64,000 nucleotides of DNA from Ignavibacteriota bacterium (GTDB taxonomy: Bacteria > Bacteroidota > Ignavibacteria > Palsa-1295), in the NCBI GenBank assembly GCA_963787835.1, contig CAWBEI010000005.1, positions 128,001 to 192,000 on the forward strand. Direction: 5' to 3'. The translations under genes were made by a program, and so were the position numbers. The notes beneath the pieces were generated by a model, which saw only the letters and a list, made by a program, of their open reading frames with translations, ran no database searches and was not told the DNA's origin. This document shows, in pieces, positions 7,937-53,028 of the stretch (its first letter is position 1; every line of letters begins with the position of its first letter).

Positions 7937-8180
7937 TATATTAGGTGGTGAGATGATGGGCACCCATATCAATTTTGAGTTAAGAACTCAGAGTTAAGAA
8001 TAGGTGCTCAGTGGCTCATTGAAAATGTAAGTGATAGGTTTCATTATGAACGAGTTCTTTAGGAAGCGGCATTATGAATACTTGTTGGAACAAATGTGCG
8101 AAATTGGCTCGGAATCGAGGCTGTCGCGAGGGCCATCGGGAACTCAGCAAGAAAAAGAAATGGCACCTGTTTCTGGGGGA
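7937..8180 (+). repeat. Dispersed promoter-containing non-coding element, copy 1
   Basis: TATATT-13nt-ATGGGCACC...GCTCATTGAAAAT...ATGAACGAGTTCTTT...CGGGAACTCAGCAAGAAAAAGAAATGGCACCTGTTTCT; homologous to 20668-20869(-) and 52738-53028(+). Confidence 0.8.
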
Positions 8181-8187
8181 TAAGCAT

Positions 8188-8230
8188 GGACCACGATTTT
8201 CAGGATTTTCGGGATTCGAGAAGGATGGGG
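8188..8230 (+). repeat. GGACCACGATT..GGATTTTC.GGATT..GAAGGATGGGG module
   Basis: Reverse-complement copies at 21557-21600 and 22332-22375. Confidence 0.75.
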
Positions 8231-8262
8231 ACGAAAGAACTGAGAAAAGTAGTTATAAGGTC

Positions 8263-8883
8263 ATGAATCGAAGAAAATTTATAGGGAGTGTTTTTGCTAC
8301 TGTAGCGGGAAGTGCTATCGTTGGCAGCATCGGAGAACTTGGCCGGTCATCGCTGGCGAAAGCCCGCTCGGTGGCATCCACGCTTACTGGAGCGCCGACG
8401 CTTACGGGAGCATCGGTGCTTACTGGAAAGGATGTCCGCGAGGTACCGATCGAATTGACGGATACTCCGGAGCTTGTTCCAGTTGGAGGCACGTACCATC
8501 TGGAATATGAGGATCTTCAGCGGGATATTCTGGTGGCGCATGTTACACCCGGCCAGTTCGTTGGCGTCGATCTTAAATGCACGCACCGGGGCTGCGATAT
8601 CGACTACCATCCGGATGACAAGAAATTCGTCTGCCCGTGCCACGGATCGGAATACGATCTTTATGGCCGAGTGCTGAAAGGGCCATCGCAACGCCCGCTG
8701 AATTGTTATCATGCCGAGCAGAAGGGCAGTGAGGTGATCGTGACCGTCTATGGCCAGGGTGATGCCGTTCCGGCGAACTCGATACCCCCGTCAGCAGATA
8801 CAACGAAGTTGCCTGTACCGGACACCAGCTTTGCGCCCAAAGTTGCTCGGGATTCGCTGAAGATGCCGAAGGATAGCAACTAA
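8263..8883 (+). CDS. Tat-exported Rieske [2Fe-2S] protein
   Basis: MNRRKFIG twin-arginine signal; CTHRGC and CPCHGS Rieske boxes. Confidence 0.92.
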   Translation: MNRRKFIGSVFATVAGSAIVGSIGELGRSSLAKARSVASTLTGAPTLTGASVLTGKDVREVPIELTDTPELVPVGGTYHLEYEDLQRDILVAHVTPGQFVGVDLKCTHRGCDIDYHPDDKKFVCPCHGSEYDLYGRVLKGPSQRPLNCYHAEQKGSEVIVTVYGQGDAVPANSIPPSADTTKLPVPDTSFAPKVARDSLKMPKDSN

Positions 8884-8908
8884 AATTCGGTTTCTACGCT
8901 TCCGGTAA

Positions 8909-10780
8909 TTGGTGAAAGTATCGAGCGATCAATTAGACCGAATCCGGGAAGCGACGAACATCGTCGATCTGGTATCCGAACACGTTCGGCTGAAAAAGCG
9001 AGGTAGAAATTTTATAGGGCTGTGCCCCTTTCACAACGAGAAAACGCCCTCGTTCAATGTGCTGGAAGATCGCGGTATCTTCAAGTGTTTTGGATGCGGC
9101 AAAGGCGGGGATGTTTTTTCCTTCGTGATGCAGATCGAAGGACTGACCTTTCCGGAAGCTGTTCAAAAGCTTGCTAGCCGGGCGCATATCGAGTTGGAGG
9201 GCGAGCGAGTCGAAGCCGATGAGATCACCCGAAGCGAGCGGGAATCGCTGTATCACGCACTTCGTGAAGCGGCGGCATATTACTATCGCGTGCTGCGCTC
9301 ACCGGAAGGTTCCAAAGCGATGGAGTATCTTCACAAACGCGGCTTGGATGACGAGATCATACGGAAATTCGGACTTGGCTACGCACCGGATCGAGCCGGA
9401 TTGCTGATCGACCACCTTGTCAATAAAGGCATCGATATTGATAAGCTGGAGCATGCAGGATTGGCTGGAAGGCGAGATTCGGGAGAGTCTTATGAGCGAT
9501 TTCGAGGGCGGGTAATGTTCCCTGTGTTCAATGCCACAGGACGCATCGTTGGGTTTGGCGGACGCATCATGCCGAACGCACCGAAGGAACTCGCGAAGTA
9601 TATTAATTCGCCGGATACGCAGGTGTATCATAAGTCGCAAATCCTGTATGGATTGTTCCAGGCAAAGGATGCAGTCCGTAAAGCAGGATATGCGATAGTA
9701 GTCGAAGGCTATGCCGATGTGCTTGCGGTGTTTCAGGCTGGCATCGAGAATGTGGTGGCGGCATCAGGAACTTCGCTTACGATGGAGCAGCTACAATTGC
9801 TCCGTCGCTATACAACGAACATCGTACTTCTCTTCGACGCGGATACCGCAGGCAAGAACGCCACCATGCGTGGCATCGAGCTTGCGATCGAAGCCGGGTT
9901 CGATGTACATACCGTGGTGCTCCCGACCGGTGAGGATCCGGATAGTTTTATTCGGCTCAATGGAAAGGAAGCATTCGAAGGGGCGCTCGAACACCGGCAA
10001 ACGTTCATCGAGACAAAAGCGCAGTTGTTTGAGGAGCAAGGCGCGTTTCGCGATCCAGGGCGTATGGCACAGGCGGTGCGCTCTATCGTGGAGACGATAG
10101 CGAAAGTTCCGGACTCCATCAAACGGGCGCTCTTTATTCAAAAGCTTGGCGAGCGGTTTCATTTGAGCGAGCAATTACTTTCGACGGAGCTTGCAAAATA
10201 TTCTGCAAATCATACGGAACCACCCGCACGTCATTCTTACGTTCCGGAGCCGGAGGTAGAGGAAGAAAGATCCGACGCGTTGCAGGATGATCTTCCGGTT
10301 CCCGCTCCCGAAGGCCTGCTGCTCGAAGCTATGCTTGCCGATCCTATCGCTGTCGATGCATTGATCGAATCCGAGGATTTCAAGCTGGATATCATCGCAC
10401 ATCCGATCGCTCGAGAGCTTCTAAGCTATCTTCTTCAACGGGTCGAAGAGGGAGATCCTCCGCAGATCGCGCAACTGCTTGATGAATATCGCGGCAGGCC
10501 GGAGTTTGAATCGCTGTTAACTACTCATGGCATGATGAATGATGTGTTCAGCGGCAATTGGGACGAACACTTCGATCAGGCGGGGATTTCTGTCGCGCGA
10601 GCGCGTCAGGCCATCGAGGAATTGCAACGCGGAAAAATAGTGCGGCGCCAAAGTGAGTTATCTTCTCAGGTTCGAAGGGATGGATTTTCGGACGATGATC
10701 TTCGCGAAATAATTGCATTACAAGGGCGACCGGAAATGCAGAAAAAACTTGCTCAGCAGATCGGGAGCGAGGAAGCGTGA
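8909..10780 (+). CDS. dnaG: DNA primase
   Basis: CPFHNEKTPSF...CFGC zinc finger, KYINSP, VVEGYADV TOPRIM, DADTAG. Confidence 0.98.
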   Translation: MVKVSSDQLDRIREATNIVDLVSEHVRLKKRGRNFIGLCPFHNEKTPSFNVLEDRGIFKCFGCGKGGDVFSFVMQIEGLTFPEAVQKLASRAHIELEGERVEADEITRSERESLYHALREAAAYYYRVLRSPEGSKAMEYLHKRGLDDEIIRKFGLGYAPDRAGLLIDHLVNKGIDIDKLEHAGLAGRRDSGESYERFRGRVMFPVFNATGRIVGFGGRIMPNAPKELAKYINSPDTQVYHKSQILYGLFQAKDAVRKAGYAIVVEGYADVLAVFQAGIENVVAASGTSLTMEQLQLLRRYTTNIVLLFDADTAGKNATMRGIELAIEAGFDVHTVVLPTGEDPDSFIRLNGKEAFEGALEHRQTFIETKAQLFEEQGAFRDPGRMAQAVRSIVETIAKVPDSIKRALFIQKLGERFHLSEQLLSTELAKYSANHTEPPARHSYVPEPEVEEERSDALQDDLPVPAPEGLLLEAMLADPIAVDALIESEDFKLDIIAHPIARELLSYLLQRVEEGDPPQIAQLLDEYRGRPEFESLLTTHGMMNDVFSGNWDEHFDQAGISVARARQAIEELQRGKIVRRQSELSSQVRRDGFSDDDLREIIALQGRPEMQKKLAQQIGSEEA

Positions 10781-11481
10781 AGACATCCGAATTCTTCGAC
10801 TCCGAAGCAGCCCAATGGAGCGAGCGCTACGCACTCGACGCACGATTCCAGCGCCGTTTTGATAAGGTTACCAGGTTGCTGGAAAAAATAGGTACTGTTT
10901 CTCCCGGCCGAGCATTGGATGTAGGATGTGGAACTGGAGTCTTTAGTCAATATCTTGCGAAAAAAGGATGGAGCGTCACAGCCATCGATGCATCACCGGA
11001 AATGATCGAGGAAGCGAAGAATTACGAATTGGGGAGCAGGATCGAATTTCAGAACGTATCTTTGGATGTGTTCAACGAAAAGCCCAATTCATACGATCTC
11101 ATCCTTTCTCTCAGTTCGCTCGAATATTTGGAGGATGACGAAGCTGCAATCGAGGAAATCCATGAGTTGCTCAAAACAGGCGGCCTACTCATTGTGAGTG
11201 TTCCCAACAAGGCGGGAATGTTACGCAAAATGGAGGGGGTGGTCTTCGGGATACGTACTGCCACCCGTGACAGAGTCTTTGGTGGAAGAGGAGAATACCT
11301 GAAATTTCAAAAGAGGCAATATACTCCGTTCGAACTCGATATATTGATGCGGCAATTCGGATTTAGGAAAAAGAGAGGAATGTTCTTAAGTGGAGGGATG
11401 ACAAAGCCTGAGTGGATGCTTCCCGTGGTCGAGCGCCGCTGGTGGGCCGCGATGTATTGCGCGGTGTACGAAAAGAAATGA
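10777..11481 (+). CDS. Class I SAM-dependent methyltransferase
   Basis: ALDVGCGTG motif I, IDASPEM, LLKTGG. Confidence 0.9.
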   Translation: MKTSEFFDSEAAQWSERYALDARFQRRFDKVTRLLEKIGTVSPGRALDVGCGTGVFSQYLAKKGWSVTAIDASPEMIEEAKNYELGSRIEFQNVSLDVFNEKPNSYDLILSLSSLEYLEDDEAAIEEIHELLKTGGLLIVSVPNKAGMLRKMEGVVFGIRTATRDRVFGGRGEYLKFQKRQYTPFELDILMRQFGFRKKRGMFLSGGMTKPEWMLPVVERRWWAAMYCAVYEKK

Positions 11482-11491
11482 ATCCCAGGTG

Positions 11492-11917
11492 TTACGAATG
11501 CGGGAAGATCTGATAGAGCATGAAGTAGATCACCACGCCCGTTACACTAACATACATCCAGATGGGATATGTCCATTTTGCGATGGCCCGATGCTTTTTA
11601 AATCGCTTCCGAAGGCCGCGTGACAATGTAATAGTGGCGAGTACGGGAACCGTGACGGCAAGAATAGTATGGGATGTCAGGAGCGTAAAATAAATCGGTC
11701 TCCAAATACCGGTTCCATCGAAATACACGATCCCGGCATTGAAGTGATAAATGAGATACGAGGCCAGGAACACGATCGAAACGCAAAACGCCGATATCAT
11801 CAGCGCCCTATGTTGAGGAATAGCTTTGTTCCGGATCCTATTTCGTGCGGCGAAAAGTAATACTGCACATGTTCCGTTGAGTGTTGCGTTTATTGCTGGC
11901 AGATCTGAAATGCTCAC
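11492..11917 (-). CDS. DUF420 family membrane protein
   Basis: LPAINATLN...H..LM...FLASYLIYH...KHRAIAKW..PIWMYVSVTGV. Confidence 0.9.
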   Translation of the reverse strand: MSISDLPAINATLNGTCAVLLFAARNRIRNKAIPQHRALMISAFCVSIVFLASYLIYHFNAGIVYFDGTGIWRPIYFTLLTSHTILAVTVPVLATITLSRGLRKRFKKHRAIAKWTYPIWMYVSVTGVVIYFMLYQIFPHS

Positions 11918-12534
11918 GGATTCCCCTCATTTTCAAGTGCATCGATATCCGCAAGTAATTGCTTCTGCCCGTCGGGATCCAATCCATTGTAGTATCCACG
12001 AATGTGACCTTGCTTATCCATCAGCGCAAATCTCGGACTATGCACGATAGGAATTCGCTGCTCGCCGCCAACAGAATCGAGCGGCAAATGGAATCCATCC
12101 TTTACCAGCGAATAGATCGAAGCTGTTGTTCCGGTGAGGAATGTCCATCGTTCGGTATTGGCATGGTGCGCAATGGCATATTCGCGAAGTGTATCGGGAG
12201 TATCGTGCTGAGGATCAACGCTGATGGATGCAAAGTAGATCTTACGTTTATCATTGAGCTCGTTCTGCAGTTCGATCATTTTGGAGGTCAGCATCGGACA
12301 AATGCTTGAGCAATGGGTGAAGATCAGGTCGGCGACCCAAATATGCCCTTTGAAATTTTGAAGCGATGCCGTCATCCCATTTTCATCGACCAGCGAAAAA
12401 TTGGGGAGCTGGCCAAAATCCTCCACATGGCGAGTATGTTCGCGTTCCCATTTGGCAATCGCAAAGCCTGCAATAAGTATCAGCGAGATAGAGAGTACAC
12501 CCCAAAGAAGGCGTTGAGTAGTCCGTGACGGCAT
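11914..12534 (-). CDS. SCO1/SenC copper chaperone
   Basis: FTHCSSICP CxxxC motif, SVDPQHDTP, conserved His. Confidence 0.93.
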   Translation of the reverse strand: MPSRTTQRLLWGVLSISLILIAGFAIAKWEREHTRHVEDFGQLPNFSLVDENGMTASLQNFKGHIWVADLIFTHCSSICPMLTSKMIELQNELNDKRKIYFASISVDPQHDTPDTLREYAIAHHANTERWTFLTGTTASIYSLVKDGFHLPLDSVGGEQRIPIVHSPRFALMDKQGHIRGYYNGLDPDGQKQLLADIDALENEGNP

Positions 12535-12557
12535 AAGTATGATCTTAACACTCCAGC

Positions 12558-12573
12558 ACCAAAGGCCGTGCCA
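12558..12573 (-). promoter_or_regulatory. Putative sigma54 -24/-12 promoter for SCO-DUF420
   Basis: TGGCACGGCCTTTGGT: perfect -24 box, -12 reads TTGG instead of TTGC at correct spacing. Confidence 0.45.
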
Positions 12574-12662
12574 ATTTTGATTTTGTGAAAAGTAGTTTGT
12601 GATCTTTTTATGTAAACTACTATTGCCTGAACGTGGTTTTCATCGCCCTGCAAAACAGGTTT

Positions 12663-12746
12663 GCCCTCGTGGCGTAATTGGTAGCCGCAAGGGACTTAAA
12701 ATCCCTTGGTCGTAAGGCCGTGCCGGTTCGAGTCCGGCCGAGGGCA
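12663..12746 (+). tRNA. tRNA-Leu(TAA)
   Basis: GCCCTCG/CGAGGGC acceptor stem, AGGGA-CTTAAAA-TCCCT anticodon arm, long variable arm, GGTTCGAGTCC T-loop; CCA not encoded. Confidence 0.96.
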
Positions 12747-12762
12747 CATAGGTGATCTGCTA

Positions 12763-14388
12763 TTAAATATCTTCAGGCACCATTTCGATGGCACCGCAGG
12801 GGCACTCGGCAACGCATACGCCGCAGCCTTTGCAGTAATCGTAGTTGAACTCAAATCTTTTGCCAGTCCCAAGTTTTATCACGGCGTTATCGGGACAAAC
12901 AGCAAAACAATTATCGCATTCGAAGCAATTTCCGCAGGACATGCATCTGCGTGCCTCGAAGAGTGCATTCGTTTCGTCTAAACCTCCAACCACTTCACCG
13001 AACGTTGTTCGCCGGCGAAGCATGTCAAGCACAGGTTGGATGGTCTTGTCGGCATCAGAATAGTACCAGGTGTTAAGTTTGTCAGAAGTGGCCAGCGCAT
13101 GTTTTGCAGCTGGTTCAAGGCTTATACCTCTAAGGTAAGCATCTATATTCCGTGCTGCTTTCTTGCCATGTCCTGCGGCAACGGTGATTGTTCGCTCGGA
13201 TGGAACCATGTCACCACCGGCAAAAATGCCGGGATGTCCAGTCATCATGTCTGTGTTGACTTTCACGACGCCATCTTTGTCATGCTCGATACCGGGCACG
13301 CGATCGAGCACGCTGGTATCGACATCCTGCCCGAGCGCGAGCACGACCATATCGCCTTCAATCACTTCAAATTCACCGGTCGGTTGGGGATACCCATTTG
13401 CATCGAGCTCCATCTTCTCGACCGTGATGCTTTCGCCACTCATGTGCTTGATCGTTTCGAGCCATCGAAATTGGATACCTTCTTCGACTGCTTCTTCAAC
13501 TTCGAAATCATGCGCAGGCATTTTTTCTCGTGTTCGGCGATAGACAATGATCGCTTCATTGCCCAATCGTCGGGCTGTGCGTGCCACATCGAGCGCGGTA
13601 TTGCCACCACCATAAACGATTACTCGACGGCCAAGCTGAGCGGGTTCGGCGCTTTCCATCGTACGCAATACACCGAGCGCGTCGAGAATTCGTCCCGCAT
13701 CTGGAGATGGAATGTCAACGCGTTTGGAAAGATGTGCCCCGATCGCTACGAAGCAGGCATCGAATCCTTCCCGCTCTATGAGCGCAGGAATGTCTTCGAC
13801 TTTTTCATTCAAACGCAAGGTCACCCCGAGATCGAGAATGCGTTGGATCTCAGAATTTACCACACCGCGCGGAAGGCGGTAGGCTGGAATACCAAACCGC
13901 ATCATGCCTCCGGGAACCGCACCTGCTTCGACGATTGTAACGGCGTGACCAAATCGAGCAAGATGATATGCTGCTGAAAGTCCGCTTGGACCCGCGCCAA
14001 CAATAAGCACTTTTTTACCGGTGGGTTCAGTAGAAATGTTCACTTTCCAACCCTCTGAAATTGCGCGATCCCCAAGGAATCGTTCTACTGCGTGGATGCT
14101 TACTGGTTCATCGAGTTGTGCGCGATTGCATGCGGTCTCGCAGGGATGGTAACAGGCCCGTCCCATAATTGCAGGGAAGGGGTTGTTCTTCATGATCTCT
14201 TCCCAGGCTGCGCGATAATTTCCTTCCTCCGCATGATACAGCCAGGCTTGAATATTCTCGCCGGCTGGACACCCGTTGTTGCAAGGCGGAAGACGATCAA
14301 TGTATTGAGGTCGCTCGGTGCGCCACGCGCCCGTGTGATTGGAGAGGCTCGAACCAGTCGGCAGAGATACTGCAAAATGATCCTTCAT
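12763..14388 (-). CDS. GltD/NfnB-like FAD-NAD(P) oxidoreductase fused with PorD-like 2x[4Fe-4S] ferredoxin
   Basis: TGAWRTERP N-terminus; CNNGCPAG, GRACYHPCETAC; GAGPSG and GGGNTA Rossmann motifs; CFECDNC and YDYCKGCGVCVAECP. Confidence 0.88.
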   Translation of the reverse strand: MKDHFAVSLPTGSSLSNHTGAWRTERPQYIDRLPPCNNGCPAGENIQAWLYHAEEGNYRAAWEEIMKNNPFPAIMGRACYHPCETACNRAQLDEPVSIHAVERFLGDRAISEGWKVNISTEPTGKKVLIVGAGPSGLSAAYHLARFGHAVTIVEAGAVPGGMMRFGIPAYRLPRGVVNSEIQRILDLGVTLRLNEKVEDIPALIEREGFDACFVAIGAHLSKRVDIPSPDAGRILDALGVLRTMESAEPAQLGRRVIVYGGGNTALDVARTARRLGNEAIIVYRRTREKMPAHDFEVEEAVEEGIQFRWLETIKHMSGESITVEKMELDANGYPQPTGEFEVIEGDMVVLALGQDVDTSVLDRVPGIEHDKDGVVKVNTDMMTGHPGIFAGGDMVPSERTITVAAGHGKKAARNIDAYLRGISLEPAAKHALATSDKLNTWYYSDADKTIQPVLDMLRRRTTFGEVVGGLDETNALFEARRCMSCGNCFECDNCFAVCPDNAVIKLGTGKRFEFNYDYCKGCGVCVAECPCGAIEMVPEDI

Positions 14389-20605: not shown

Positions 20606-20667
20606 GGCGTTACCCCTAACGGTTGCGGGCGGGATGTTGTTCGGAAAGAACAAAACCATTGCCTTAA

Positions 20668-20869
20668 AGAAATAGGTGCCACTTCTTTTTCTTGTGAGTT
20701 CCCGATGATTCCTCGTTTCCAAACTGTTTTCGCCATTTGTTGCAACAAATTCTTTTCTCAAAGAACATGTTCATAACGAAAACCACCCCGACTGCCAGAT
20801 TGTCAATGAACATGACACAAAACACTATTCCCACAGACACTTGGTGCCCATAGTTTCACTACCAATATA
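20668..20869 (-). repeat. Dispersed promoter-containing non-coding element, copy 2
   Basis: Minus strand: TATATT-12nt-ATGGGCACC...GTTCATTGACAAT...ATGAACATGTTCTTTG...TTGTTGCAACAA...CGGGAACTCACAAGAAAAAGAAGTGGCACCTATTTCT. Confidence 0.8.
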
Positions 20870-20929
20870 CAACGCTTTTTCGGTGGTGCTGTGAAATTCG
20901 AAATTTCTTTTGACCTGTATGTGGATGCC

Positions 20930-21304
20930 TTAAAGACCCAGTGAGATTGAGAGAGCATCTCGGATGAGAGCCAATTCGCTGGAGCGAATGCTACCAAGCT
21001 TTTTAACGAACCGGTCTAAGTCGAACGCATGACACTGTGCGGTATCGACTTCACTGGCTTTGGAAAGACCACTCTTTGCATCGGCATTGATGCCAACGTA
21101 CCAATACAGCCGTAGATGCCGATGCTTATCGTCGGTAACGGGAACGACGATCCTGAGAGGCAAATAAGTAAAACCCGGCTCGGAGACTACAACAGCCGGT
21201 CGGCGTTTGTCCATTTCAGCAAGCATCGCCTACGATGCGCCACGATTCGGTTCGAAATCGACGAGCCATATTTCACCCGGCCTGGGATCGAGTGAAATGT
21301 TCAA
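20930..21304 (-). pseudogene. MazF/PemK toxin interrupted by in-frame TAG within an 18-bp hairpin insertion
   Basis: From TTG 21304: LNISLDPRPGEIWLVDFEPNRG-AS*AML-AEMDKRRPAVVVS; TAG at 21230-21232. Confidence 0.8.
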
Positions 21305-21486
21305 TCGTGGACGTGGTGACTCGCTTGAATGATCGATTCCGGATGCTCGGAGTAAAGTTTGCCGCCAAGCTTGAATTGCGCCGCCAACACTTTTTCACGC
21401 TCGCTTTTTGAAAGCTTGCGAATCTCCGAAGCGGTCAATGTACGCGGCGGAGCCTGAGGTTTTTCGGTCTTATAAAGCCTTGTCAT
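21301..21486 (-). CDS. Putative antitoxin (61 aa)
   Basis: Small ORF whose TGA overlaps the TTG start of the MazF-like gene; TACTTTTG element 6 nt before ATG. Confidence 0.65.
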   Translation of the reverse strand: MTRLYKTEKPQAPPRTLTASEIRKLSKSEREKVLAAQFKLGGKLYSEHPESIIQASHHVHD

Positions 21487-21537
21487 ATCTAACAAAAGTA
21501 ACCAAACCCGGAAATAGTTCGGCTCACACTGTCCCCA

Positions 21538-21675
21538 CCTCTTACTTCTTACTTTTCCCCATCCTTCCATAATCCTGAAAATCCTGTGAATCGTGGACCC
21601 ATTTCATACTTCATAATTCATACTTCGTGATTTCCCCCGCCCCCGTCCGCCACAAAATTCGAAATTTTCTTCAGT
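21538..21675. repeat. Composite direct repeat left of TA pair 2
   Basis: (CTTACTT)n + CCCCATCC..AATCCTGAAAATCC..AATCGTGG + (TTCATAC/A)n + CCGCCAC.AAATTCGAAATTT; second copy at 22293-22458. Confidence 0.8.
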
Positions 21676-21704
21676 CATTCGTGGGGAACATCATAGGAGA
21701 TACT

Positions 21705-21944
21705 ATGTTAGTAAAAGCGATGAACAAGGTACAAGCCAAGCATACGCCTGCCTCGCGAATTAGTAGAAGAGCATCTTCAAAGGGGGAGCGCAAGCACGAA
21801 GAAATTTCTGACCGCGAGCTCACCCAGCTCGCGAGTGCTTCACGCGCGCATGACTGGCTCCGTGATCCCGAGCAAGATATTTATAGCCTGAAAGACGGCA
21901 AACCTGCCCAATGGCCGTCGAAACGTACAAACGGGGCAGCGTAG
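21705..21944 (+). CDS. Putative antitoxin
   Basis: AGGAGA RBS; acidic DWLRDPEQDIY C-terminal motif typical of MazF partners; overlaps toxin start. Confidence 0.7.
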   Translation: MLVKAMNKVQAKHTPASRISRRASSKGERKHEEISDRELTQLASASRAHDWLRDPEQDIYSLKDGKPAQWPSKRTNGAA

Positions 21945-22279
21945 TACTCGTTCGGTTCCCTTATACCGACCTCACCGGCTCCAAAGTCCGGCCTGCCGTG
22001 ATCGTTACGCCGGAGAAATATCTGGCCAGCTCCGAGGATGTGCTTTGCGCCTTCATTTCTTCCGTGTTGCCCGATCCGTTGCTGCAAACCGACATTGTGA
22101 TAAGCTCCATTCACACGGATTTTAGAAGGGCGGGTTTGAAGCGAAGTTCCGTGCTGCGTACACACAAGCTTGTGTTGCTAAATAAGGAACTCGTCTATTC
22201 CAAATTGGGAGATCTCTCTGCAATGCTCACCAAGCAAATGAACGCCGGACTGATCGAAGCGTTAGGTTTGAATGAATAA
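21911..22279 (+). CDS. PemK/MazF family toxin
   Basis: RGSVVLVRFPYTDLTGSKVRPAVIV...AGLKRSS.R..KL. Confidence 0.9.
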   Translation: MAVETYKRGSVVLVRFPYTDLTGSKVRPAVIVTPEKYLASSEDVLCAFISSVLPDPLLQTDIVISSIHTDFRRAGLKRSSVLRTHKLVLLNKELVYSKLGDLSAMLTKQMNAGLIEALGLNE

Positions 22280-22292
22280 TTTTCCCCCGCAA

Positions 22293-22458
22293 CTCTTACT
22301 TCTTAACTCTTACTTCTTACTTATTACTTTTCCCCATCCTTCCCTAATCCCGAAAATCCCGCGAATCGTGGCCCCGTTTCATCTTTCATCTTTCATATTT
22401 CATATTTCATCTTTTCCCCATTCCCCCGCCCGCCACGAAATTCGAAATTTTTCTCAGC
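22293..22458. repeat. Composite direct repeat right of TA pair 2
   Basis: Same block order as 21538-21675 with expanded heptamer tracts. Confidence 0.8.
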
Positions 22459-22503
22459 CCCAGCTGGGGCACATAGCTCTAGCCGGGCGGCGTAAGCCAC
22501 CAG
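22457..22503. repeat. REP-like element (GCCCCAGCTGGGGC...TAGCC...GCGTAAGCC)
   Basis: 14-bp palindrome followed by a TAGCC/GTAAGCC segment, resembling REPs associated with IS200/IS605-type (RAYT) transposases. Confidence 0.5.
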
Positions 22504-22551
22504 TTAGCGGGATTTTTTAGTGCAATGAGTCCGAGAGATAAAAGAAAAAAC

Positions 22552-23658
22552 TTATTTTACAATGAATATGATGTCAGTCAGCGCGTCAAATTTTTGAGGT
22601 TTGCCTTTATATGAAAAAGAAATCTTTAGATCTTGGATTTTTTTTCGCTTAAATTTATCTAAATAAGAGAATATGGATGGCTTGAGCAAATCCAAATTTC
22701 TTTTAAGCTTCCAGGAATTCGTAAAATCATTCGTATCCACGAGAACAAGAAATAATCTGTTCTCAGAGCTGAAACGCATTTCACCTTGATTTTCATAAAG
22801 CCAGAGCGCAAGTTTTTTTGGATTTTCTTGTGCGTCAAGTAAAATATCTGTCGTTTCTTGTTTCAAAGATCGTAAGACGGATAAAGTAAACCTATCCGAG
22901 CGATCCTTCATTTTTTCAGTTATCTCATTATGAATAGCGGCCGCTTTTGCATTTCTATCAAAAGTGATATTTGCTTCCTTTGCTTTTTGTTTTAAAAAAG
23001 TAAGCTCAACTGGCAATCCTCTTTCTTTTCTCTTTGCCTTGATATACTCTGCCGGGAGATAGGTCACCTTCAAGTCAAATGGAACATCATCAAGAAAAAA
23101 ATCCACGTTCTTTATTTGCCCGACTGTCGGCAAAACTGCTTCATGCGATTTGAAAATATGCTCTATCAGGATACTCGACCAGTGATTGTACCAACTATTG
23201 AGAACATATCCTTGAACAGCAGCCGCTATTTCTCCATCAAATTTTGAGATTAGAGTGTCATAAGATTTGCAAGCTTTGACGTACCTGCTCACAAGATACT
23301 TATCTAAAGAGTTTTGATAATCCCCTCCCCAATCGAAATGCTGCACTTTGTATAGTTCAGATACGAGTTCATCGCGATTAAGTGATTTTACTTGCTGCTT
23401 GTTGATTCCACGAATAAAACCGTCGAGTAGTAGATGTGATTTTTCAGGGTTTTTGGATAATATATTGAATAGCTCAACAAACTGTCGAGAAAGTGAGGAT
23501 TCATTCAATATTATGTTGGATGACTTCGTAAACTCCTGAATCAATTCCTTCCGTACAATTGATTTCGTTTTAAGCCAAAGCAGGCCCATCCTGTCTGAAC
23601 TAAATTCTTCCAGTTTCTCACTTTCGTGGAGTTTCTTCCAGTAATTAAAATCCTTCAT
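22552..23658 (-). CDS. Putative type II restriction endonuclease
   Basis: E....VDFFLDDVPFDLKVT PD-(D/E)xK-like motif; overlaps MTase gene; AT-rich. Confidence 0.65.
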   Translation of the reverse strand: MKDFNYWKKLHESEKLEEFSSDRMGLLWLKTKSIVRKELIQEFTKSSNIILNESSLSRQFVELFNILSKNPEKSHLLLDGFIRGINKQQVKSLNRDELVSELYKVQHFDWGGDYQNSLDKYLVSRYVKACKSYDTLISKFDGEIAAAVQGYVLNSWYNHWSSILIEHIFKSHEAVLPTVGQIKNVDFFLDDVPFDLKVTYLPAEYIKAKRKERGLPVELTFLKQKAKEANITFDRNAKAAAIHNEITEKMKDRSDRFTLSVLRSLKQETTDILLDAQENPKKLALWLYENQGEMRFSSENRLFLVLVDTNDFTNSWKLKRNLDLLKPSIFSYLDKFKRKKIQDLKISFSYKGKPQKFDALTDIIFIVK

Positions 23659-24760
23659 TTACTAGTTCGGTTTGATAACGTCCGCTAAACGAAAAAATCT
23701 TTTGCGGTTTGCAGACAAATAAGATTTCGCGGCTGCCAGCAACGCTTCCTTTGCCGCCTCTGCCATTATGGTAGGTTTTTGTTTCAACACTTACATCCCT
23801 ATGCATAGAGATCATCTTCCCAAAAACCTCTACACTCGGGTAGCTACGGTCATTATAACTAAAAAGCCAGATTGGGATTTCTTGTGCAAGTTCAAATAAT
23901 TTTTGGAGGGACGATATAACGTCTCTTTTTTTATCGAAGCCGCTGAACCGCTGTGGGTCGTAACGTTTAATTCCATTTATGAACTGCTTATCGCCCCAAT
24001 ACTCAGTAAAGGTTTCGAGAAGATGATAGAAACTCTGGTAGTCTGCATGGCTATCGCAATATGGTGGATCGAAATATGCTAAATCGATTTTCCCTAAATT
24101 TGGAAGGAGCTCCAAGATGTTCCTGTGGTAACTCTTATTCTCCAGGTCGTTATCGAAAACCGCATCATTATATTTCGATAGTAGATCTTGGAAAATATCT
24201 TTGATCGGCCTTGCAAGGCTTCTGTTCCTTTTTATTCGTTCGGGATCACTCGCATAACTCAGGGCCTGTGTATGGGCGAAATGTCCCATCGTGATTTTTC
24301 TCGACATACTCCGGTTTATAACGGTGAATGCAAGAGCTTGTTTATAAGGGCTTTCGAGCAAGGGAATGTTAGCCCTGATATTATCTAAAAAGTAAGCATC
24401 CTCTTTTTCAAAGAAAACATTAGTGTAAACGCTCTCAATAAGCTGAAATTCTTTTTTATTTTTAGCGGGCTGAAAGAGAATGTCAATGTCGTTTTTTGTC
24501 AGTTGTTCCGAATTATTTTCTATTAATCCAAGTCCTATCTGATGATTGAAATTTAAAAAATCATTCGTGATCGTTTTTAGCCCAAGCTGCTTGAAAAGAA
24601 ACGCGACAGACTGAGATCCGGCAAATGCATCGAGTGCAGTCTCAATACCACTAGGAATAAATCTTTTAATCCAACCGAGATGTGAATACTTAGCGCCCAA
24701 GTATTGTGGTTCAGGAAACAGGTAGTTAAGATTTGAGTATTCTTTGAATAGAGTTATCAT
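23645..24760 (-). CDS. Dam/D12-class N6-adenine DNA methyltransferase
   Basis: PQYLGAK, DAFAGSQSV motif I, YFDPPY motif IV. Confidence 0.92.
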   Translation of the reverse strand: MITLFKEYSNLNYLFPEPQYLGAKYSHLGWIKRFIPSGIETALDAFAGSQSVAFLFKQLGLKTITNDFLNFNHQIGLGLIENNSEQLTKNDIDILFQPAKNKKEFQLIESVYTNVFFEKEDAYFLDNIRANIPLLESPYKQALAFTVINRSMSRKITMGHFAHTQALSYASDPERIKRNRSLARPIKDIFQDLLSKYNDAVFDNDLENKSYHRNILELLPNLGKIDLAYFDPPYCDSHADYQSFYHLLETFTEYWGDKQFINGIKRYDPQRFSGFDKKRDVISSLQKLFELAQEIPIWLFSYNDRSYPSVEVFGKMISMHRDVSVETKTYHNGRGGKGSVAGSREILFVCKPQKIFSFSGRYQTELVNEGF

Positions 24761-46331: not shown

Positions 46332-46384
46332 AGCACAAAATTACGAAATGCCGAGCACAGCACCAATAAGAGCGGCTCTTTATA

Positions 46385-46882: not shown

Positions 46883-46903
46883 ATACAAAATTACGAAGGA
46901 GGA

Positions 46904-47395
46904 TCACTTCCTGCTATTAACCATCGAAAGAACGAATGCTCCAACGATGAGGAGCATGTTAGCGCTTACGAGAGCGGTGTATCTGTGGTGAAGGGAATCA
47001 AATTCGTTCTTCGCTTGGATATATTGCGTCGTTTGCTGGGGATGATCGAAATCGCCGATGGTGGAACGCAGGACATTCATTCGATTGGTAGTATGAGTGG
47101 AATAAGTCCAAAGAATGATCGTTGCAATTAAGATCGCGGCTGTTTCGACGATTCGCAGGGTTCGAGTTCCATCGTTCCAATTCAAAAGGAGTAGGACAAT
47201 GGAAGAAAGAAGAGCCACAATAGCACACACCCACTCGATATTATTCATCCTCCCAAGGATAACACCGTTTATGGATCCCGCAAGTGTTCTTGAAGATAAT
47301 TGCTGGAAGATAGGGCCAGCGACCGCATAGCCCAACATAATGAGTGCCCCGAGCCAAACGCCGAGCGAAAGAGTTTTGAGAATTGAAAGGATCAT
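46904..47395 (-). CDS. DUF4149-like membrane protein
   Basis: WLG.......A..IF..L.SR..AG, F..LH motif, 4 TM. Confidence 0.75.
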   Translation of the reverse strand: MILSILKTLSLGVWLGALIMLGYAVAGPIFQQLSSRTLAGSINGVILGRMNNIEWVCAIVALLSSIVLLLLNWNDGTRTLRIVETAAILIATIILWTYSTHTTNRMNVLRSTIGDFDHPQQTTQYIQAKNEFDSLHHRYTALVSANMLLIVGAFVLSMVNSRK

Positions 47396-47524
47396 GCTAT
47401 TAAAACGATAAATGAAGGTATAGGGGTTCAGCGGTCAACAAGATTACTTCTGATGTTGTGATCGCAGGAATCCCAAATAGATGCTCTCGTGTTCGAGGGG
47501 TGCTTTTTACTTGGAATGCACATT

Positions 47525-48457
47525 ATGTCCGACTCTGTCTTAACCCTCGAAAACGTTACTAAAAATTATGGCCGGAAGGTTGCGGTCGATGCCGTTTCGC
47601 TTGCGGTGTCAGGCGGCAGCATTTTCGGTCTGCTTGGCCCGAATGGTGCTGGCAAGACCTCGACCATCCGTATGATAACTGGCATCACGCTGCCGGATCG
47701 CGGTTCCATTCGGTTATTCGGCGAATCCCAGCGCGAAGATCATCAGAATCAAATTGGCTATATGCCGGAAGAGCGCGGACTGTACCGAAAGCTCACCGTT
47801 CGCAATCAACTCGAATATCTCGGCGCGCTGAAAGGATTAGATTCTCATGCTCTGAAAACGGCTATCGACTATTGGCTCGATCGTTTTGAGATCAGGTCGT
47901 GGGAGAAGAAGAAAACTTCTGATCTGTCGAAGGGCATGCAGCAAAAGGTGCAGTTCATTCTCACGCTTTTGCACGATCCCGCACTGCTTGTGCTCGACGA
48001 ACCACTTTCGGGACTCGATCCGGTGAATGCTGAGCTTATCAATGAAGTGATCCTTGAACTTCGCGGGCGCGGCAAGACGATCATTCTTTCCACGCACCGT
48101 ATGGAGCAAGTTGAGCAGCTTTGTGATGAGATCGCGATGATGAACGATGGCAAGATCGTTCTCGCCGGGAAAGTCCGCGAGCTGAAGGCTCGTTCGGGAC
48201 GCAAGCTTGTCTCGATGCGGTTTACCGGCGATGCTACATTCCTGCGAACGTATGGCGATGAGCGAGTGAGGATATTAGAGAATACTCCAAATGAGATACT
48301 CATGGAGATAGGTACTTCCGAAAAACCAGGTGATTTGCTAAAACAAGTTGCGGAATATCTCGATATTCAAAAATGGGAGATCGTCGAGCCGCCGATAAAA
48401 GAACTGTTCCTGGAAGCCATCGCCGCCAAACCTGAAACTGCCACTATGCTTGCCTAA
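47525..48457 (+). CDS. ABC transporter ATP-binding protein (NatA/YhaQ-like)
   Basis: GPNGAGKT, LSKGMQQK, LDEPLSGLDP. Confidence 0.95.
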   Translation: MSDSVLTLENVTKNYGRKVAVDAVSLAVSGGSIFGLLGPNGAGKTSTIRMITGITLPDRGSIRLFGESQREDHQNQIGYMPEERGLYRKLTVRNQLEYLGALKGLDSHALKTAIDYWLDRFEIRSWEKKKTSDLSKGMQQKVQFILTLLHDPALLVLDEPLSGLDPVNAELINEVILELRGRGKTIILSTHRMEQVEQLCDEIAMMNDGKIVLAGKVRELKARSGRKLVSMRFTGDATFLRTYGDERVRILENTPNEILMEIGTSEKPGDLLKQVAEYLDIQKWEIVEPPIKELFLEAIAAKPETATMLA

Positions 48458-48463
48458 CCGGAT

Positions 48464-49744
48464 ATGAATAAAACAATAATAGTTCTAAAGCACGAATTTC
48501 TGATCAAGGTAAAGTCCCGTGCCTTTATTGTCATGACGCTCATTGGCCCATTGCTGATGGGAGCCATTATCATTCTACCTGCGTATTTTTCTGCCACGAA
48601 TAGTGGCGATGTGCGCCATTTAGTAGTGATCGATAGCACGGGGAGATTGGCGCAATCGATGATCGCACAGTCTCACGACACCGCGAGCGATTTTCTTTCC
48701 AAGCAATTTTCTACGAACGTAACGCTTGAAAGCGTAATGCCTGGTCCGAATGTGAAGGACTCGCTCGGGAAACTCGTCGAAGCGAAACTACTAACGGGAT
48801 ACATGACCATCCCTGCGAATGCTATACAGGATAGTGCCAGCACTGCGCAGATCAAGCTTCACAATCCGAGCGATATATCTTCGGTTTCATTCCTGAAGGA
48901 TTCTTATCTTAAAGCTATTCGTGATGCGAAGCTTGGCGCGCGCGGGATCGATCCCAACATGGTTACGAATGTCGAGTCGGGCGTTCATGTCGAGACAGTT
49001 AAGCTCGAAGCTGGCTCCGAGAAGAAAGACAGCGGCGACACGGGAATGATCATGGCGTTCGTCACGACGTTCATTCTTTACTTTTCCCTTATCATGTATG
49101 GCACGCTTATTATGAACAGCGTGATCGAGGAGAAATCGAGCAGGGTAGTGGAGTTGGTGGCTTCGAGCGTTCGGCCATTCCAGTTGCTGGTCGGCAAAGT
49201 ATTGGGCGTTGCGAGCGCGGCGCTGATTCAGGTTGGCGTTTGGGCGATCTTGCTGGTTGCACTCACGACTGTCGGCTTAACCGCAGCCAGCGCAATGCTT
49301 GGATCGGATATACTTCCCTCTATCTCGCCATTTCTATTTCTGTACTTTGTGCTGTTTTTCGTGCTCGGTTTTCTTATTTATGCAACGCTATACGCGGCTA
49401 TTGGCTCGACAGCGGAATCGGCGAGCGATGTTCAGCAAATATCTATGCCGGTCGTGATGCTGTTGGTGATCCCGTTCATCTTATTGCAAGGGGTCATTCA
49501 AAATCCATCGAGCACCAAGAGCGTGGTGCTCTCACTCATTCCTTTCTTTTCACCGATCCTCATGCTGGGGCGCATCTTTACCGAAACGCCACCGTGGTGG
49601 CAGATTGCGCTTGCGGTCGCGCTGATGATCGGAACGTTCTTCGGCTGCCTGTGGATCGCGGCACGCATTTACCGCGTGGGAATTCTTATGTATGGCAAGA
49701 AATTCAAACTCAGCGAGATCGCGAAATGGGTGCGGTATTCGTAG
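48464..49744 (+). CDS. ABC-2 transporter permease (NatB/YhaP-like)
   Basis: VIEEKSSRVVE, GKVLG, IYRVGILMYGK. Confidence 0.93.
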   Translation: MNKTIIVLKHEFLIKVKSRAFIVMTLIGPLLMGAIIILPAYFSATNSGDVRHLVVIDSTGRLAQSMIAQSHDTASDFLSKQFSTNVTLESVMPGPNVKDSLGKLVEAKLLTGYMTIPANAIQDSASTAQIKLHNPSDISSVSFLKDSYLKAIRDAKLGARGIDPNMVTNVESGVHVETVKLEAGSEKKDSGDTGMIMAFVTTFILYFSLIMYGTLIMNSVIEEKSSRVVELVASSVRPFQLLVGKVLGVASAALIQVGVWAILLVALTTVGLTAASAMLGSDILPSISPFLFLYFVLFFVLGFLIYATLYAAIGSTAESASDVQQISMPVVMLLVIPFILLQGVIQNPSSTKSVVLSLIPFFSPILMLGRIFTETPPWWQIALAVALMIGTFFGCLWIAARIYRVGILMYGKKFKLSEIAKWVRYS

Positions 49745-49808
49745 ATGTTGGCGGAGTTCTCTTGTCGAAAAGTACGAAACGAAAGCGGCCATGCGATGTT
49801 ATAAAAGT

Positions 49809-50030
49809 ATGCCAGTAAAAACTATATCGAAAAAGAGTATCCCCGTGAAACGTACAGTGCGGCGTAGCGTCGTGAAAAAGAGAGCGTCAACCGACCCCTT
49901 GAAAGCGCTTCTTAATGATATTGCGCAGAGCGGTTTTTCGATCCCTGCCGACCAACGTGCGCGAATTCCGCACGATTTTGCTAAAAACATGGATCACTAT
50001 CTATACGGCGCTGCCAAAGGACGCGCGTGA
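49809..50030 (+). CDS. Putative VapB-type antitoxin
   Basis: P.DFAKNMDHYLYG C-terminal motif; GTGA overlap with PIN toxin. Confidence 0.75.
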   Translation: MPVKTISKKSIPVKRTVRRSVVKKRASTDPLKALLNDIAQSGFSIPADQRARIPHDFAKNMDHYLYGAAKGRA

Positions 50031-50443
50031 TCGAATTTTTTGCGGACACCTCCTATTGGATCGCGCTGCAGTTGCCCGAAGACGGTTTGCATCGTTCGGC
50101 AGTCAAACTTTTTGAAGCAATGCCTGATGGAAGCCGGCTCATCACTTCTGAATTGGTAATGGTAGAGTTCCTAAACCACATGAGCCGCGCGGGGCACGGT
50201 GTTCGGAAGCAAGCGGCCGAGACATGGACAAAAATAGAAAAAAGTTCACGTATCGATCTTGTGCCATCGACAGAGGATTTGCTCGGGCAAGCGCGGTTTA
50301 TGTTTGAGAATTTGGTTGATAAATCATGGTCGCTCACCGATTGTGCATCTATCATTATTATGCGCCGCAAGAAAATAAATGAAGTATTATCCTCTGACCA
50401 CCATTTTGAACAGGCAGGACTTCGAGCCCTTATGCGTTCCTAA
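50027..50443 (+). CDS. VapC/PIN-domain toxin
   Basis: FADTSYWIAL, E, WSLTDCAS, SDHHFEQAG. Confidence 0.92.
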   Translation: MIEFFADTSYWIALQLPEDGLHRSAVKLFEAMPDGSRLITSELVMVEFLNHMSRAGHGVRKQAAETWTKIEKSSRIDLVPSTEDLLGQARFMFENLVDKSWSLTDCASIIIMRRKKINEVLSSDHHFEQAGLRALMRS

Positions 50444-50449
50444 CGAGGA

Positions 50450-52591
50450 TCATTGTAATACGATCGGGACTCGCTCCACACTTCCATTCATTCGCACAAT
50501 AGCCCAATACGCTCCCGGAGGCATGTTAGCGGCGTTCCAGGTGAAGGTATGCTCGCCGGCAGATAGCTCACCCTCGAACAGCCGCGCAACCTCCGAGCCC
50601 AGAAGATTTACAATGCTAAATTCCGCAGCGCCGCTTTCGGGTGAGGTGAAGGTAATGGTGGTAGATTGGGTGAAGGGGTTGGGGTAGCTTTGTATTTCGT
50701 TTGAAACTGTTTGTTGTTCTGTCGAAACACTTGCCGTGACCATGTTGGAAATTGCTCTTTTCCAAACACCTGTACCGTATTGAGCAGAGTTGCCACTCTG
50801 AGTTCCAACAAAAAGCGTTGCCGACGATGGATCTGTGCCGATTGCAGCGAAGGCATTCGCAAACGAGTTAGATGGCCATCCAGAAAGCTCCGAAGTCCAT
50901 TTGGAACCGGTGTCCGTCGATAACAAAACGCTGCCGTTAGCACCAGCGAATAGATTGGAGCCAAAGGCGAACAATGAAACAACCCATATATCATTGGAGA
51001 AACCATTATTCACCGTACTCCATTCTGATCCATCGTCGGTTGACAGAGAGACGCTACTGTCATCAGAACCAGCAAAAATATTATTTCCGATAACAGCAAG
51101 CGCATCGACAAAAGGACTTGCTTTCCCTGGATTAAACAAACTGGTAGCAGACCAGTTTGAGCCATTGTTCGTCGAAAGATAAACGCCCCCAGCACATCCA
51201 GCAAAAATGTTCGAGCCGCAAACGGCGAGGGCATTTACTTCAAAGCTCTGCAAACCAGAACCAGCATTCTTCCAACTTGTACCGCTATCAGATGAGAGAA
51301 AAACTCTGCCGCTCCCCGCAGCAAAAAGATTCGTTCCGTTCGATACAAGAGAGACAATCCCCGTGCCTTGTAAGCCAGTATTAGCACCGATCCAGCTCTT
51401 GCCGCTGTCAATGGAGCGAAAAAGTCCCCCGTTAGTTCCGACAAACACGGATTTTCCCATCACCGCTAATGCGTTGACATACTCACCCGATCCGGAGTTA
51501 TCAGAGATTGTTAAGCCGGAATCTGCCTCTACCCACGTTGTCCCACTATCTATTGAACGAAACATCCCGCCTCGTTGAGTACCTGCGAAAATAATTGTGC
51601 CGATCTGGGCAAGTGCGGTAATAGTAGGAGTAGGCAAACCCTTGCTCGCTGCTGTCCAGCTTTCACCATTATCTGTCGAGCGATAAACACCGTTCCCGCC
51701 AGTTCCTGCAAAGAGACTTGAACCGGTTCCGAAAAGAGAAGAAACAGAATTAGAAGTTGTAAGCCCGTTAATCGGATGGGTCCAAGTTACGCCATTGTCT
51801 GATGAAATAAGAACACCGTTCTGATTTGTTCCGGCAAAGAGTTTTCCTCCGATCATCGCAAGACTCCATATCATGGAGTCGGTCATACCGTTATAGCTAA
51901 CATTCCAACTTTCACCTCTGTCATTCGAAATGTAAACCCCGCGATCTGTTCCTGCATAGATATTATTTTCGCTCACTAGCACGGTATTGACATCGGCAAT
52001 TCTCGGTCCGTTGCTCGTAGGGTTCCAACTAGTACCGCTATCGGTGGTTAGAAAAACGCCATCGTAAGTGCCTGCAAAAACGTCCGTCCCACTCACCGCG
52101 AGAGAGGTGACGTAATTTTCCATCAAGCCGGAATCCACTTCCATCCAATTTTTGCCACTGTCTTTCGAGCGAAAAATGCCGGCACCTCCACCGTACGCCG
52201 ATACATAAAGGTCAGTGCCGCTTGCGGTAAGTGCAGTTATCTCCATGTTCTGAGGTAAACCACTACTCGCAGCCTCCCAGGTCTTACCACTATCGATAGA
52301 TAGAAAGACTCCATTGTAGAAAGTCCCGGCAAATAGATTGTTGCCAATTACAGTGAAAGCAATGATAGGGTACTCGATGCCATTATTTGACGAAGCCCAT
52401 ATTGTGCCATTGTCAGTCGAACAATACACACCATTATCAGTACCCGCAAAGAGAATTGAGCCGATTTTGGCAAAAGCTCCAACATCTCCACCATATGGCC
52501 CATTCGTCTGAACCCATTGAGCATTTGCGCTCCTGGAGTTGAAAAACGCAAAACTTAGAACTACTAAGATTACGGCAAACTTATTTTTCAT
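50450..52591 (-). CDS. Secreted BNR/Asp-box beta-propeller protein with T9SS C-terminal sorting domain
   Basis: Signal peptide to AQW; many GV..S.D.G.SW repeats; YPNPF...NLLG CTD. Confidence 0.9.
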   Translation of the reverse strand: MKNKFAVILVVLSFAFFNSRSANAQWVQTNGPYGGDVGAFAKIGSILFAGTDNGVYCSTDNGTIWASSNNGIEYPIIAFTVIGNNLFAGTFYNGVFLSIDSGKTWEAASSGLPQNMEITALTASGTDLYVSAYGGGAGIFRSKDSGKNWMEVDSGLMENYVTSLAVSGTDVFAGTYDGVFLTTDSGTSWNPTSNGPRIADVNTVLVSENNIYAGTDRGVYISNDRGESWNVSYNGMTDSMIWSLAMIGGKLFAGTNQNGVLISSDNGVTWTHPINGLTTSNSVSSLFGTGSSLFAGTGGNGVYRSTDNGESWTAASKGLPTPTITALAQIGTIIFAGTQRGGMFRSIDSGTTWVEADSGLTISDNSGSGEYVNALAVMGKSVFVGTNGGLFRSIDSGKSWIGANTGLQGTGIVSLVSNGTNLFAAGSGRVFLSSDSGTSWKNAGSGLQSFEVNALAVCGSNIFAGCAGGVYLSTNNGSNWSATSLFNPGKASPFVDALAVIGNNIFAGSDDSSVSLSTDDGSEWSTVNNGFSNDIWVVSLFAFGSNLFAGANGSVLLSTDTGSKWTSELSGWPSNSFANAFAAIGTDPSSATLFVGTQSGNSAQYGTGVWKRAISNMVTASVSTEQQTVSNEIQSYPNPFTQSTTITFTSPESGAAEFSIVNLLGSEVARLFEGELSAGEHTFTWNAANMPPGAYWAIVRMNGSVERVPIVLQ

Positions 52592-52737
52592 AGGCGTATA
52601 AATGAAAATATGGCAAAAAGACTTTTCCCAAACAAGGGGTGATGAGAAAGGTGCCCGTGGGGTTCCTAATCTGCGGTAGGGTTTTATTGACGTTCTCGAT
52701 GAAACAGCGTCTTTTTCCAAAAATCTTTCAAAAACAC

Positions 52738-52766
52738 TTGACATCGTCCATTTTAGTACGTATATT
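52738..52766 (+). promoter_or_regulatory. Near-consensus sigma70 promoter TTGACA-17-TATATT
   Basis: TTGACA 52738-52743, TATATT 52761-52766; heads repeat copy 3 and points toward rpsO. Confidence 0.7.
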
Positions 52767-53028
52767 AGCATTTGCTTTGATGGGCACCTGTTTCAATTAA
52801 GAATTACGAATTAAGAATGGGGGAAATAAGTAAGAAGTAAGAGTTAAGAAGTAAGAAATGCGGAGCGTGGAGAGTTCATTGACAATTGATGCGGCGGCTT
52901 TCGGAGTGAACGAGTTCTTTGGGAAAGCAAAATGTGAATAACTTTTGCGACAAACGGCGAAAACAGCATGGATTCAAGGGTGGGCGGGAACTCAGCAAGA
53001 AAAAGAAAAAGCACCTATTTCTGGGGGA
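52761..53028 (+). repeat. Dispersed promoter-containing non-coding element, copy 3
   Basis: TATATT-13nt-ATGGGCACC, heptamer tracts, GTTCATTGACAAT, GTGAACGAGTTCTTTG, CGGGAACTCAGCAAGAAAAAGAAAAAGCACCTATTTCTGGGGGA. Confidence 0.8.

Follow-up and report, generated by a model that had tools for sequence, protein, structure and literature searches.

The 64,000-nucleotide stretch of contig CAWBEI010000005.1 analyzed here (the window), which derives from an uncultured soil bacterium, a Kapabacteria-like member of the Bacteroidota group, contains three copies of a short repeat (the cassette) belonging to a dispersed non-coding family of about 80 copies, each 200–300 bases in length and assembled as a modular mosaic. 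With a probability of roughly 0.6, this family is read as an SOS promoter–boxA cassette that derives from an SOS transcription unit, is spread and reshuffled by recombination, and is resident at island edges. According to this reading, LexA would keep the sigma-70-type promoters of the cassettes off. Upon DNA damage, RNA polymerase would start at the cassette, NusB-S10 would load at boxA, and the resulting Rho-resistant, untranslated RNA would leave the island and run into core DNA, in sense orientation in two thirds of cases and in antisense orientation in one third. The cassette would then be what remains of an SOS transcription unit after its gene was lost, which is suggested because the lexA leader shares cassette modules and because some copies still hold a gene for a RecA-fold protein. 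Copies would serve as homology anchors for island exchange and rearrangement, with spread and reshuffling proceeding by recombination and not by a transposase of the cassette's own; spread by recombination, considered separately, is judged reasonably probable.

Anatomy and copy number of the cassette

An initial annotation of the window, made from the sequence alone, described three copies that share a series of named blocks in a fixed order. All of these blocks are present in that order, each of six patterns matches only these loci in the window, and the near-palindrome TTGTTGCAACAA is indeed perfect in copy 2 only. Further copies, which the annotation had proposed to count genome-wide, are abundant: an nhmmer model built from the three copies recovered 54 full-length copies (E<1e-20) in the 3.57-Mb genome, and a second model built on those 54 returned 83 matches that merge to 79 loci at E<0.01, as compared to 0 in the reversed genome. 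The combination of a -10 box and RGCAC at a spacing of 13-17 nt occurs 88 times, versus 6-11 times at five other spacings. Full copies, measured between the -10 box and the final GCACC, span 174-294 nt and are ordered as follows: promoter, 5' box, a variable segment (heptamer runs or an GACCACGATTT module), block B (GTTCATTGAMA), block C (ATGAACGAGTTC), TGGCGAAA, GGGAACTC, and a terminal ATGGCACCTATTTC-N5-GAMA. Variant modules are found in about 25 loci. The promoter, variable, and middle modules vary independently of each other (rho <0.1), whereas the middle and the tail are linked (0.47). No match to the 3' pattern of the cassette was found in viral or metagenome contigs, a blank that says little about range, as does that of a further pattern search that overlooked copies already known.

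The statement that no reading frame is conserved across copies is borne out genome-wide, since distances to the cassette end split 30/16/5 over the three frames (n=51) and stop codons are frequent. The same frame spread and stops rule out a decayed coding gene as the origin of the cassette.

The annotation had also considered a multicopy structured non-coding RNA, in which GTTCAT/ATGAAC and GAGTTC/GAACTC would pair. The cassette has its own promoter, its complementary blocks pair in 82.7% of cells, and in about half of them the operator described below could take part in a 5' hairpin (a GGTGC-like stretch is carried by 27/54 copies). However, covariation is at the level reached by shuffled controls (55/500), no compensatory change was seen in either proposed pairing, and 17 of 51 copies alter GAGTTC while GAACTC is invariant. 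RNAalifold predicted 0 pairs across 51 copies, folding z-scores are similar on the two strands (-0.90 sense, -0.77 antisense), no terminator-like end occurs among 54 copies, and a search of Rfam gave no match to the cassette, with only a tRNA identified in the window. With no covariation, no predicted pairs, and similar folding of both strands, the structured RNA reading is unsupported and considered very unlikely.

Predicted SOS box and boxA motif

The initial annotation observed GCACC at both ends of the cassette, which is correct, but missed its place as the right half of a 16-bp dyad, GTGC-N8-GCAC. This dyad is predicted, with high confidence, to be the SOS box (LexA operator) of this lineage. 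Across the 54 full copies the 5' box reads GTGM-N8-GCAC, with G in 38, T in 53, G in 46, and A or C in 45 copies at the successive left-half positions and GCAC in 54/54, while the terminal box comprises the right half of the dyad only. The interpretation of the GCACC box as a LexA operator is drawn because the box is found at lexA, recA, ssb, dinB, and recQ. The genome encodes one S24 peptidase, a LexA, and the box is positioned just after a -10-like hexamer at lexA in 19/19 genomes of the Kapabacteria-like family to which the host belongs (hereafter family genomes), with GCAC often repeated every 16 nt; among lexA loci of other families the box is at that position in 0/10, with one off-position AGCACC and one near match. 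For recA, the box occurs within 330 nt upstream in 22/23 family genomes, as compared to 3/23 in reversed controls, and in several family genomes a perfect GGTGCC-N6-GGCACC is present. Moreover, in this genome the promoter-plus-box occurs without the cassette body ahead of ssb, recQ, two dinB genes, and a uvrD-like gene, and likewise ahead of DNA methylases and of genes resembling AlkD and Bro-N; the names of most of these genes were read off translations. Relatives with few cassettes carry the box before ssb, recA, and recQ. Strict promoter-plus-box matches number 65 in this genome and 50, 46, 41, and 39 in four close relatives. Three further family genomes have 20-30 each, the remaining eleven have 1-13, and twelve genomes from outside the family have 0-4. 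Additionally, the lexA leader itself bears cassette modules.

The LexA box of E. coli is CTGT-N8-ACAG, and the box described here resembles it in being a 16-bp dyad with an 8-nt spacer, located at lexA, recA, dinB, ssb, recQ, and uvrD-like genes. Its sequence, with a right half that is much stronger, is unlike that of E. coli and unlike the motifs given in the portions consulted of reports on Bacteroidetes (GGA-N5-TCC and CTAA-N5-TTAG; PMC8565304) and Balneolaeota (TTACACATATTTTWTACATA; PMC7739468). It also departs from known SOS operators in that most sites in this genome lie in gene-less repeats and not before repair genes.

The second predicted regulatory module is block B. The resemblance of this block to boxA was pointed out in the initial annotation and is strengthened by the ribosomal RNA leaders of the lineage itself. 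In 19/19 family genomes with an assembled 16S start, the sense strand carries GTTCATTGAMA (GTTCTTTGAAA in a single genome) at 164-436 nt ahead of the 16S gene, as compared to 0 occurrences in antisense orientation, and a boxA variant was seen by eye ahead of the 23S gene. The genome encodes nusB. As given in the sections consulted of PMC13753749, boxA reads UGCUCUUUAACA in E. coli and AUGAUCUUUGAAA in B. subtilis, the latter consensus was shown to bind NusB, and boxA is also found before suhB and CRISPR arrays. Block B resembles the B. subtilis consensus and is, as judged from sequence, this lineage's boxA; it is present in 44/53 cassettes, where it is predicted to be functional with fairly good confidence. 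As in rrn leaders, the motif is of the same class, on the sense strand, and downstream of a promoter, and it is identical to the lineage's 16S leader motif. Unlike in rrn leaders, dozens of copies are dispersed under a predicted LexA promoter and a third of them face convergent genes.

The 16S (G000 C4:406883) and 23S (C6 about 169200) genes are unlinked, and both are preceded by a long leader in which a boxA-like motif occurs; in 4/19 genomes, a variant cassette is found ~1 kb ahead of 16S. Twelve intergenic boxA-like matches fall outside the strict cassette list (G000 C2:12752, 83512, 1470235, 866970, and others), ten of which are sense to the preceding gene, including sites after typA, in the atp region, and before an rsmH-like gene. 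It is possible that these are native antitermination sites.

Island edges, gene-carrying forms, and mobility

Cassettes sit, with a constant polarity, at the core-facing edge of accessory gene islands; neither this polarity toward core genes nor the gene-carrying form described below was noted in the initial annotation. Genes in front of them are core genes including rplJ, rplM, rpsL, thrS, dxr, trmD, and hom, and those behind are toxin-antitoxin genes, SIR2, methylases, Cas9, type IX secretion system (T9SS)/BNR proteins, or ORFans (80 of 108 flanking open reading frames were scanned, with mostly those overlapping a copy omitted). The G+C content is 46.9% behind versus 50.8% in front and is lower behind in 51/53 copies. 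Genes behind have no common orientation (30 same, 24 opposite), and no island-end motif distal to the cassettes is shared, with only Y1-MITE (miniature inverted-repeat transposable element) hairpin words present in ~10/54 upstream regions.

The gene in front is in sense orientation in 35/53 cases and convergent in 18/53. The placement of each copy sense to and upstream of a gene, as initially described, thus applies to the three window copies and not genome-wide. It also bears on the suggestion that the cassette acts as an antitermination leader and raises expression of the housekeeping gene that it faces. Promoter and boxA do precede rplJ, rplM, rpsL, thrS, dxr, and rpsO, and the identity of boxA would fit such a role. 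However, a convergent gene lies in front of 17 of the 44 copies with boxA, close relatives do not have the same sites, and rpsO keeps its own conserved upstream region in 15/15 genus genomes, 11 of which lack a cassette there. Because 18/53 copies face a convergent gene, no general leader role for the next gene is supported, and this explanation is regarded as highly improbable.

Comparison to relatives drew on strict sites of G002 (46 in total) and G006 (50 in total); the first 30 of each were taken, and the 26 and 26, respectively, with body modules were retained. The front flank of these sites has a homologue here in 50/52 cases. By contrast, of the 52 rear flanks, 5 are syntenic, 27 are missing here, 9 are located elsewhere, and 11 adjoin a different copy in this genome, as compared to ordinary junctions that are syntenic in 32/55. 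Copies are shared at 28/50 sites, and 22/50 have no detected copy here, one of the latter being gene-carrying. Thus, as the initial annotation supposed might be seen in related genomes, empty sites exist, and a dispersed promoter-bearing unit comes and goes between relatives. The copy 1 site is filled in G014 and G009 and not in G002, G010, or G001; the copy 2 site is filled in G014 and not in G009, G002, or G001; and the rpsO site carries a cassette in 4/15 genus genomes, with different modules in each. In G006, a copy and its island occupy a site that is empty in three relatives, and an inversion lies between two copies. A more distant relative, G003, has its own cassette family with the same promoter-box and boxA-like modules and different spacers, which suggests independent or concerted expansion.

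Some copies carry a gene between their modules. At G000 C2:1412325-1411540, C2:1382383-1381574, and the typA locus (C2:5522-4752), the boxes are followed by an open reading frame of ~260 amino acids and then by the body modules. Homologues of this gene occur in 14/15 genus genomes with 1-8 matches each; the box is within the upstream 230 nt at 21/30 loci, and at 4 more it falls inside the initial codons of a reading frame that was drawn too long. The modeled protein (pLDDT 89.6) matches DnaB, T7 gp4, RadA, and Rad51 paralogues (Z 13.8-14.1, rmsd 3.4-4.5, 177-198 aligned); 302 representatives match. No Walker A motif is present in the alignment, a scan of one member gave no convincing Pfam match, and no PHROG or PDB sequence match was found. 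These proteins form a lineage-restricted, multicopy family that is LexA-boxed by prediction, and by analogy they are presumably inactive RecA relatives of the ImuA/SulA type. In two cases a gene-bearing and a gene-less cassette occupy the same site in different genomes; genomes with more cassettes do not consistently have more copies of the gene. One gene copy in G002, and likewise one in G006, lies just upstream of a CRISPR array. At the contig start, C2:2477-5522 and 9784-12745 form an inverted near-duplicate of typA and the RecA-fold gene with frameshifts on one side, which is probably an assembly artefact.

The gene-carrying form, together with strict polarity, could also be taken to indicate damage-switched sites of gene capture or replication priming, in which antiterminated, untranslated RNA would form R-loops and, with DnaA boxes and a RecA/DnaB-fold helper, foreign DNA would integrate behind the promoter. 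DnaA-box-like 9-mers are present in 13/54 copies, one of them inverted, as compared to ~0.7 expected from the genome rate, the LexA-boxed RecA/DnaB-fold gene occupies the cargo slot, and a LexA-controlled gene facing away from an array is an integron-like layout. This explanation is nevertheless unlikely: no recombinase is linked to the cassettes, the upstream genes are mixed in orientation (the 30 and 24 given above), no common cassette-end motif exists, and the protein lacks Walker A and does not follow cassette number. A related scenario, rather improbable, is a host-run, integrase-free acquisition of genes, in which the SOS response would lift LexA from about 80 promoters, untranslated RNA protected by boxA would open the DNA with the aid of R-loops, DnaA boxes, and a LexA-controlled RecA/DnaB-fold helper, and foreign defence and surface genes would be captured or swapped behind each promoter.

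Alternatively, the cassette could be the non-autonomous end of a transposon (a MITE or a one-ended ISCR-like element) whose enzyme was lost or is unrecognised. High copy number, the 22/50 empty sites, a sharp 3' motif, and variable DNA on one side only are in keeping with this. However, inspection revealed no terminal inverted repeats, the cassette ends being direct GCACC boxes, and copies are mosaics and not a burst of near-identical sequences. No cognate enzyme was identified among Y1, IS110, TnpB, Y2, tyrosine recombinase, and reverse transcriptase families (DDE families and serine recombinases were not searched): Y2 is absent from 14/15 genus genomes, this one included, TnpB was not found, no reverse transcriptase was tied to a cassette, and the three tyrosine recombinases are, by inspection, two Xer-like and one phage-like. 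A single IS110 gene is unlinked to cassettes and lies in a high-GC, foreign-looking stretch, and nine Y1/RAYT loci have flanks and palindromes other than those of the cassette, which does not belong with their REPIN/RAYT repeats. A transposon end is therefore improbable, and of the non-autonomous mobile unit proposed initially, dispersal and presence/absence hold while a cognate transposase was not found among the families searched. The IS110-bearing, high-GC stretch (G000 C2 about 1.87-1.885 Mb) is unlike the rest of the genome and is probably foreign or mis-binned. Each of the nine Y1/RAYT loci has its own palindromic REP family, and related hairpins are found behind ~10/54 cassettes and in front of none. 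An XerC-like recombinase (G000 C2:372706-371627) contains a low-complexity insert that keeps the reading frame and resembles a product of heptamer repeats.

Several observations weigh against the SOS promoter–boxA cassette reading. Many copies have a weak left half of the dyad, and the terminal box lacks this half; no convincing box was found at recN, radA, or one uvrA; in relatives with few cassettes, the genes behind some strict matches are unrelated ones; and the compared genomes are kin, such that counts are not independent. Contigs from RNA libraries contain element sequence but also DNA upstream of the -10 box, and transcription cannot be read from them; sequencing-run look-ups covered small shares and contigs only and have no bearing on transcription or habitat. 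Empty sites, at ~80% identity, are too diverged for a precise junction or a target duplication to be read. Further, recombination accounts for shuffling and not for the arrival of a copy at a new site, and antisense transcripts that continue into core genes might be detrimental or might not arise at all.

Window copies, known systems, and significance

In the window, copy 1 extends from its promoter region to its end motif at 7905..8186 (+). Its -10 hexamer TATATT (7937..7942, +) has a poor match at the -35 position and is followed by a LexA operator GTGA-N8-GCAC (7948..7963, +), predicted also from the footprint at lexA and recA, a boxA-like GCTCATTGAAA (8014..8024, +), and a terminal GGCACC box with the operator right half only (8162..8167, +). 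Core genes encoding a Rieske protein and dnaG lie in front (8263..10780, +). Copy 2 (20656..20905, -) has its -10 TATATT (20869-20864) and predicted operator GTGA-N8-GCAC (20859-20844) within 20844..20869 (-), a boxA-like GTTCATTGACA (20801..20811, -), and a terminal GGCACC box (20675..20680, -). The gene after it, initially labeled GT-C-like, has no Pfam or NCBIfam match and the label is unconfirmed. Behind copy 2, an accessory island (20930..24760) contains two PemK/MazF-type toxin genes with small neighbouring reading frames, a D12-class adenine methyltransferase, and an adjoining unannotated reading frame, the last two possibly constituting a restriction-modification pair.

Copy 3 (52725..53034, +) has the promoter that the initial annotation called textbook, and TTGACA-17-TATATT is confirmed at 52738..52766 (+), with an 11/12 match. 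A predicted LexA operator TTGC-N8-GCAC (52772..52787, +), a boxA-like GTTCATTGACA (52874..52884, +), a DnaA-box-like TTATTCACA (52933..52941, -), and a terminal AGCACC box (53010..53015, +) follow. An accessory BNR-repeat gene with a T9SS tail lies behind (50450..52640, -) and rpsO, with its own conserved upstream region, in front (53207..53476, +). In that region (window 53085-53210), a GGAATTA...CGTT promoter-like motif and a ATAGCGCG/GCGCTAT stem are kept in 15 genus genomes. The DNA just before it differs in every genus genome, a hypervariable hotspot even where no cassette is present.

The arrangement of cassette parts has parallels. In lambda, pL-oL-nutL places a RecA-inducible promoter before boxA, and in integrons PintI/attI is a LexA-controlled unit that faces away from accessory genes. 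Unlike nutL, no boxB accompanies the cassette boxA; unlike integrons, the cassettes have no integron integrase, attC-like repeats, uniform gene orientation, or shared distal motif. Correia elements are promoter-carrying MITEs, and REPIN/RAYT repeats are short, multicopy, and intergenic. Cassettes are likewise short, multicopy, intergenic, and variably present between relatives, but differ from both in their modular mosaic body and in having no terminal inverted repeats, no target duplication seen, and no cognate transposase found. The 13E12 repeats of Mycobacterium tuberculosis are multicopy and LexA-bound and are described, in the part of the report consulted, as insertion elements with phage attachment sites (PMC3381160). 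Cassettes are similarly multicopy and, by prediction, LexA-boxed; whereas 13E12 repeats are, as described there, protein-coding and few, cassettes are mostly gene-less, number about 80, bear boxA, are polar relative to islands, and have no known integrase. LexA-bound 13E12 repeats and promoter-carrying repeats are the closest relatives in kind of the cassette, which is built from known parts.

For an uncultured lineage related to Bacteroidota, the analysis provides a predicted SOS box, a predicted boxA, and a predicted SOS regulon, none of which was found in the literature searched; that search, which did not extend to subscription journals and supplements, yielded no report dealing with Kapabacteria LexA or with a repeat that combines LexA and boxA sites in multiple copies. 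In this lineage, a regulon promoter has multiplied several-fold as gene-less repeats, which are found at almost all of the island edges and rearrangement breaks tested. Provided that the promoters are functional, damage to DNA would set off dozens of transcripts that resist termination and enter core genes, one third in antisense orientation, and the surplus operators could titrate LexA. The relationship between SOS induction and the landing place of accessory genes thereby becomes testable at defined sites. Should the gene-acquisition reading be true, the SOS response would directly drive island turnover and genome rearrangement.

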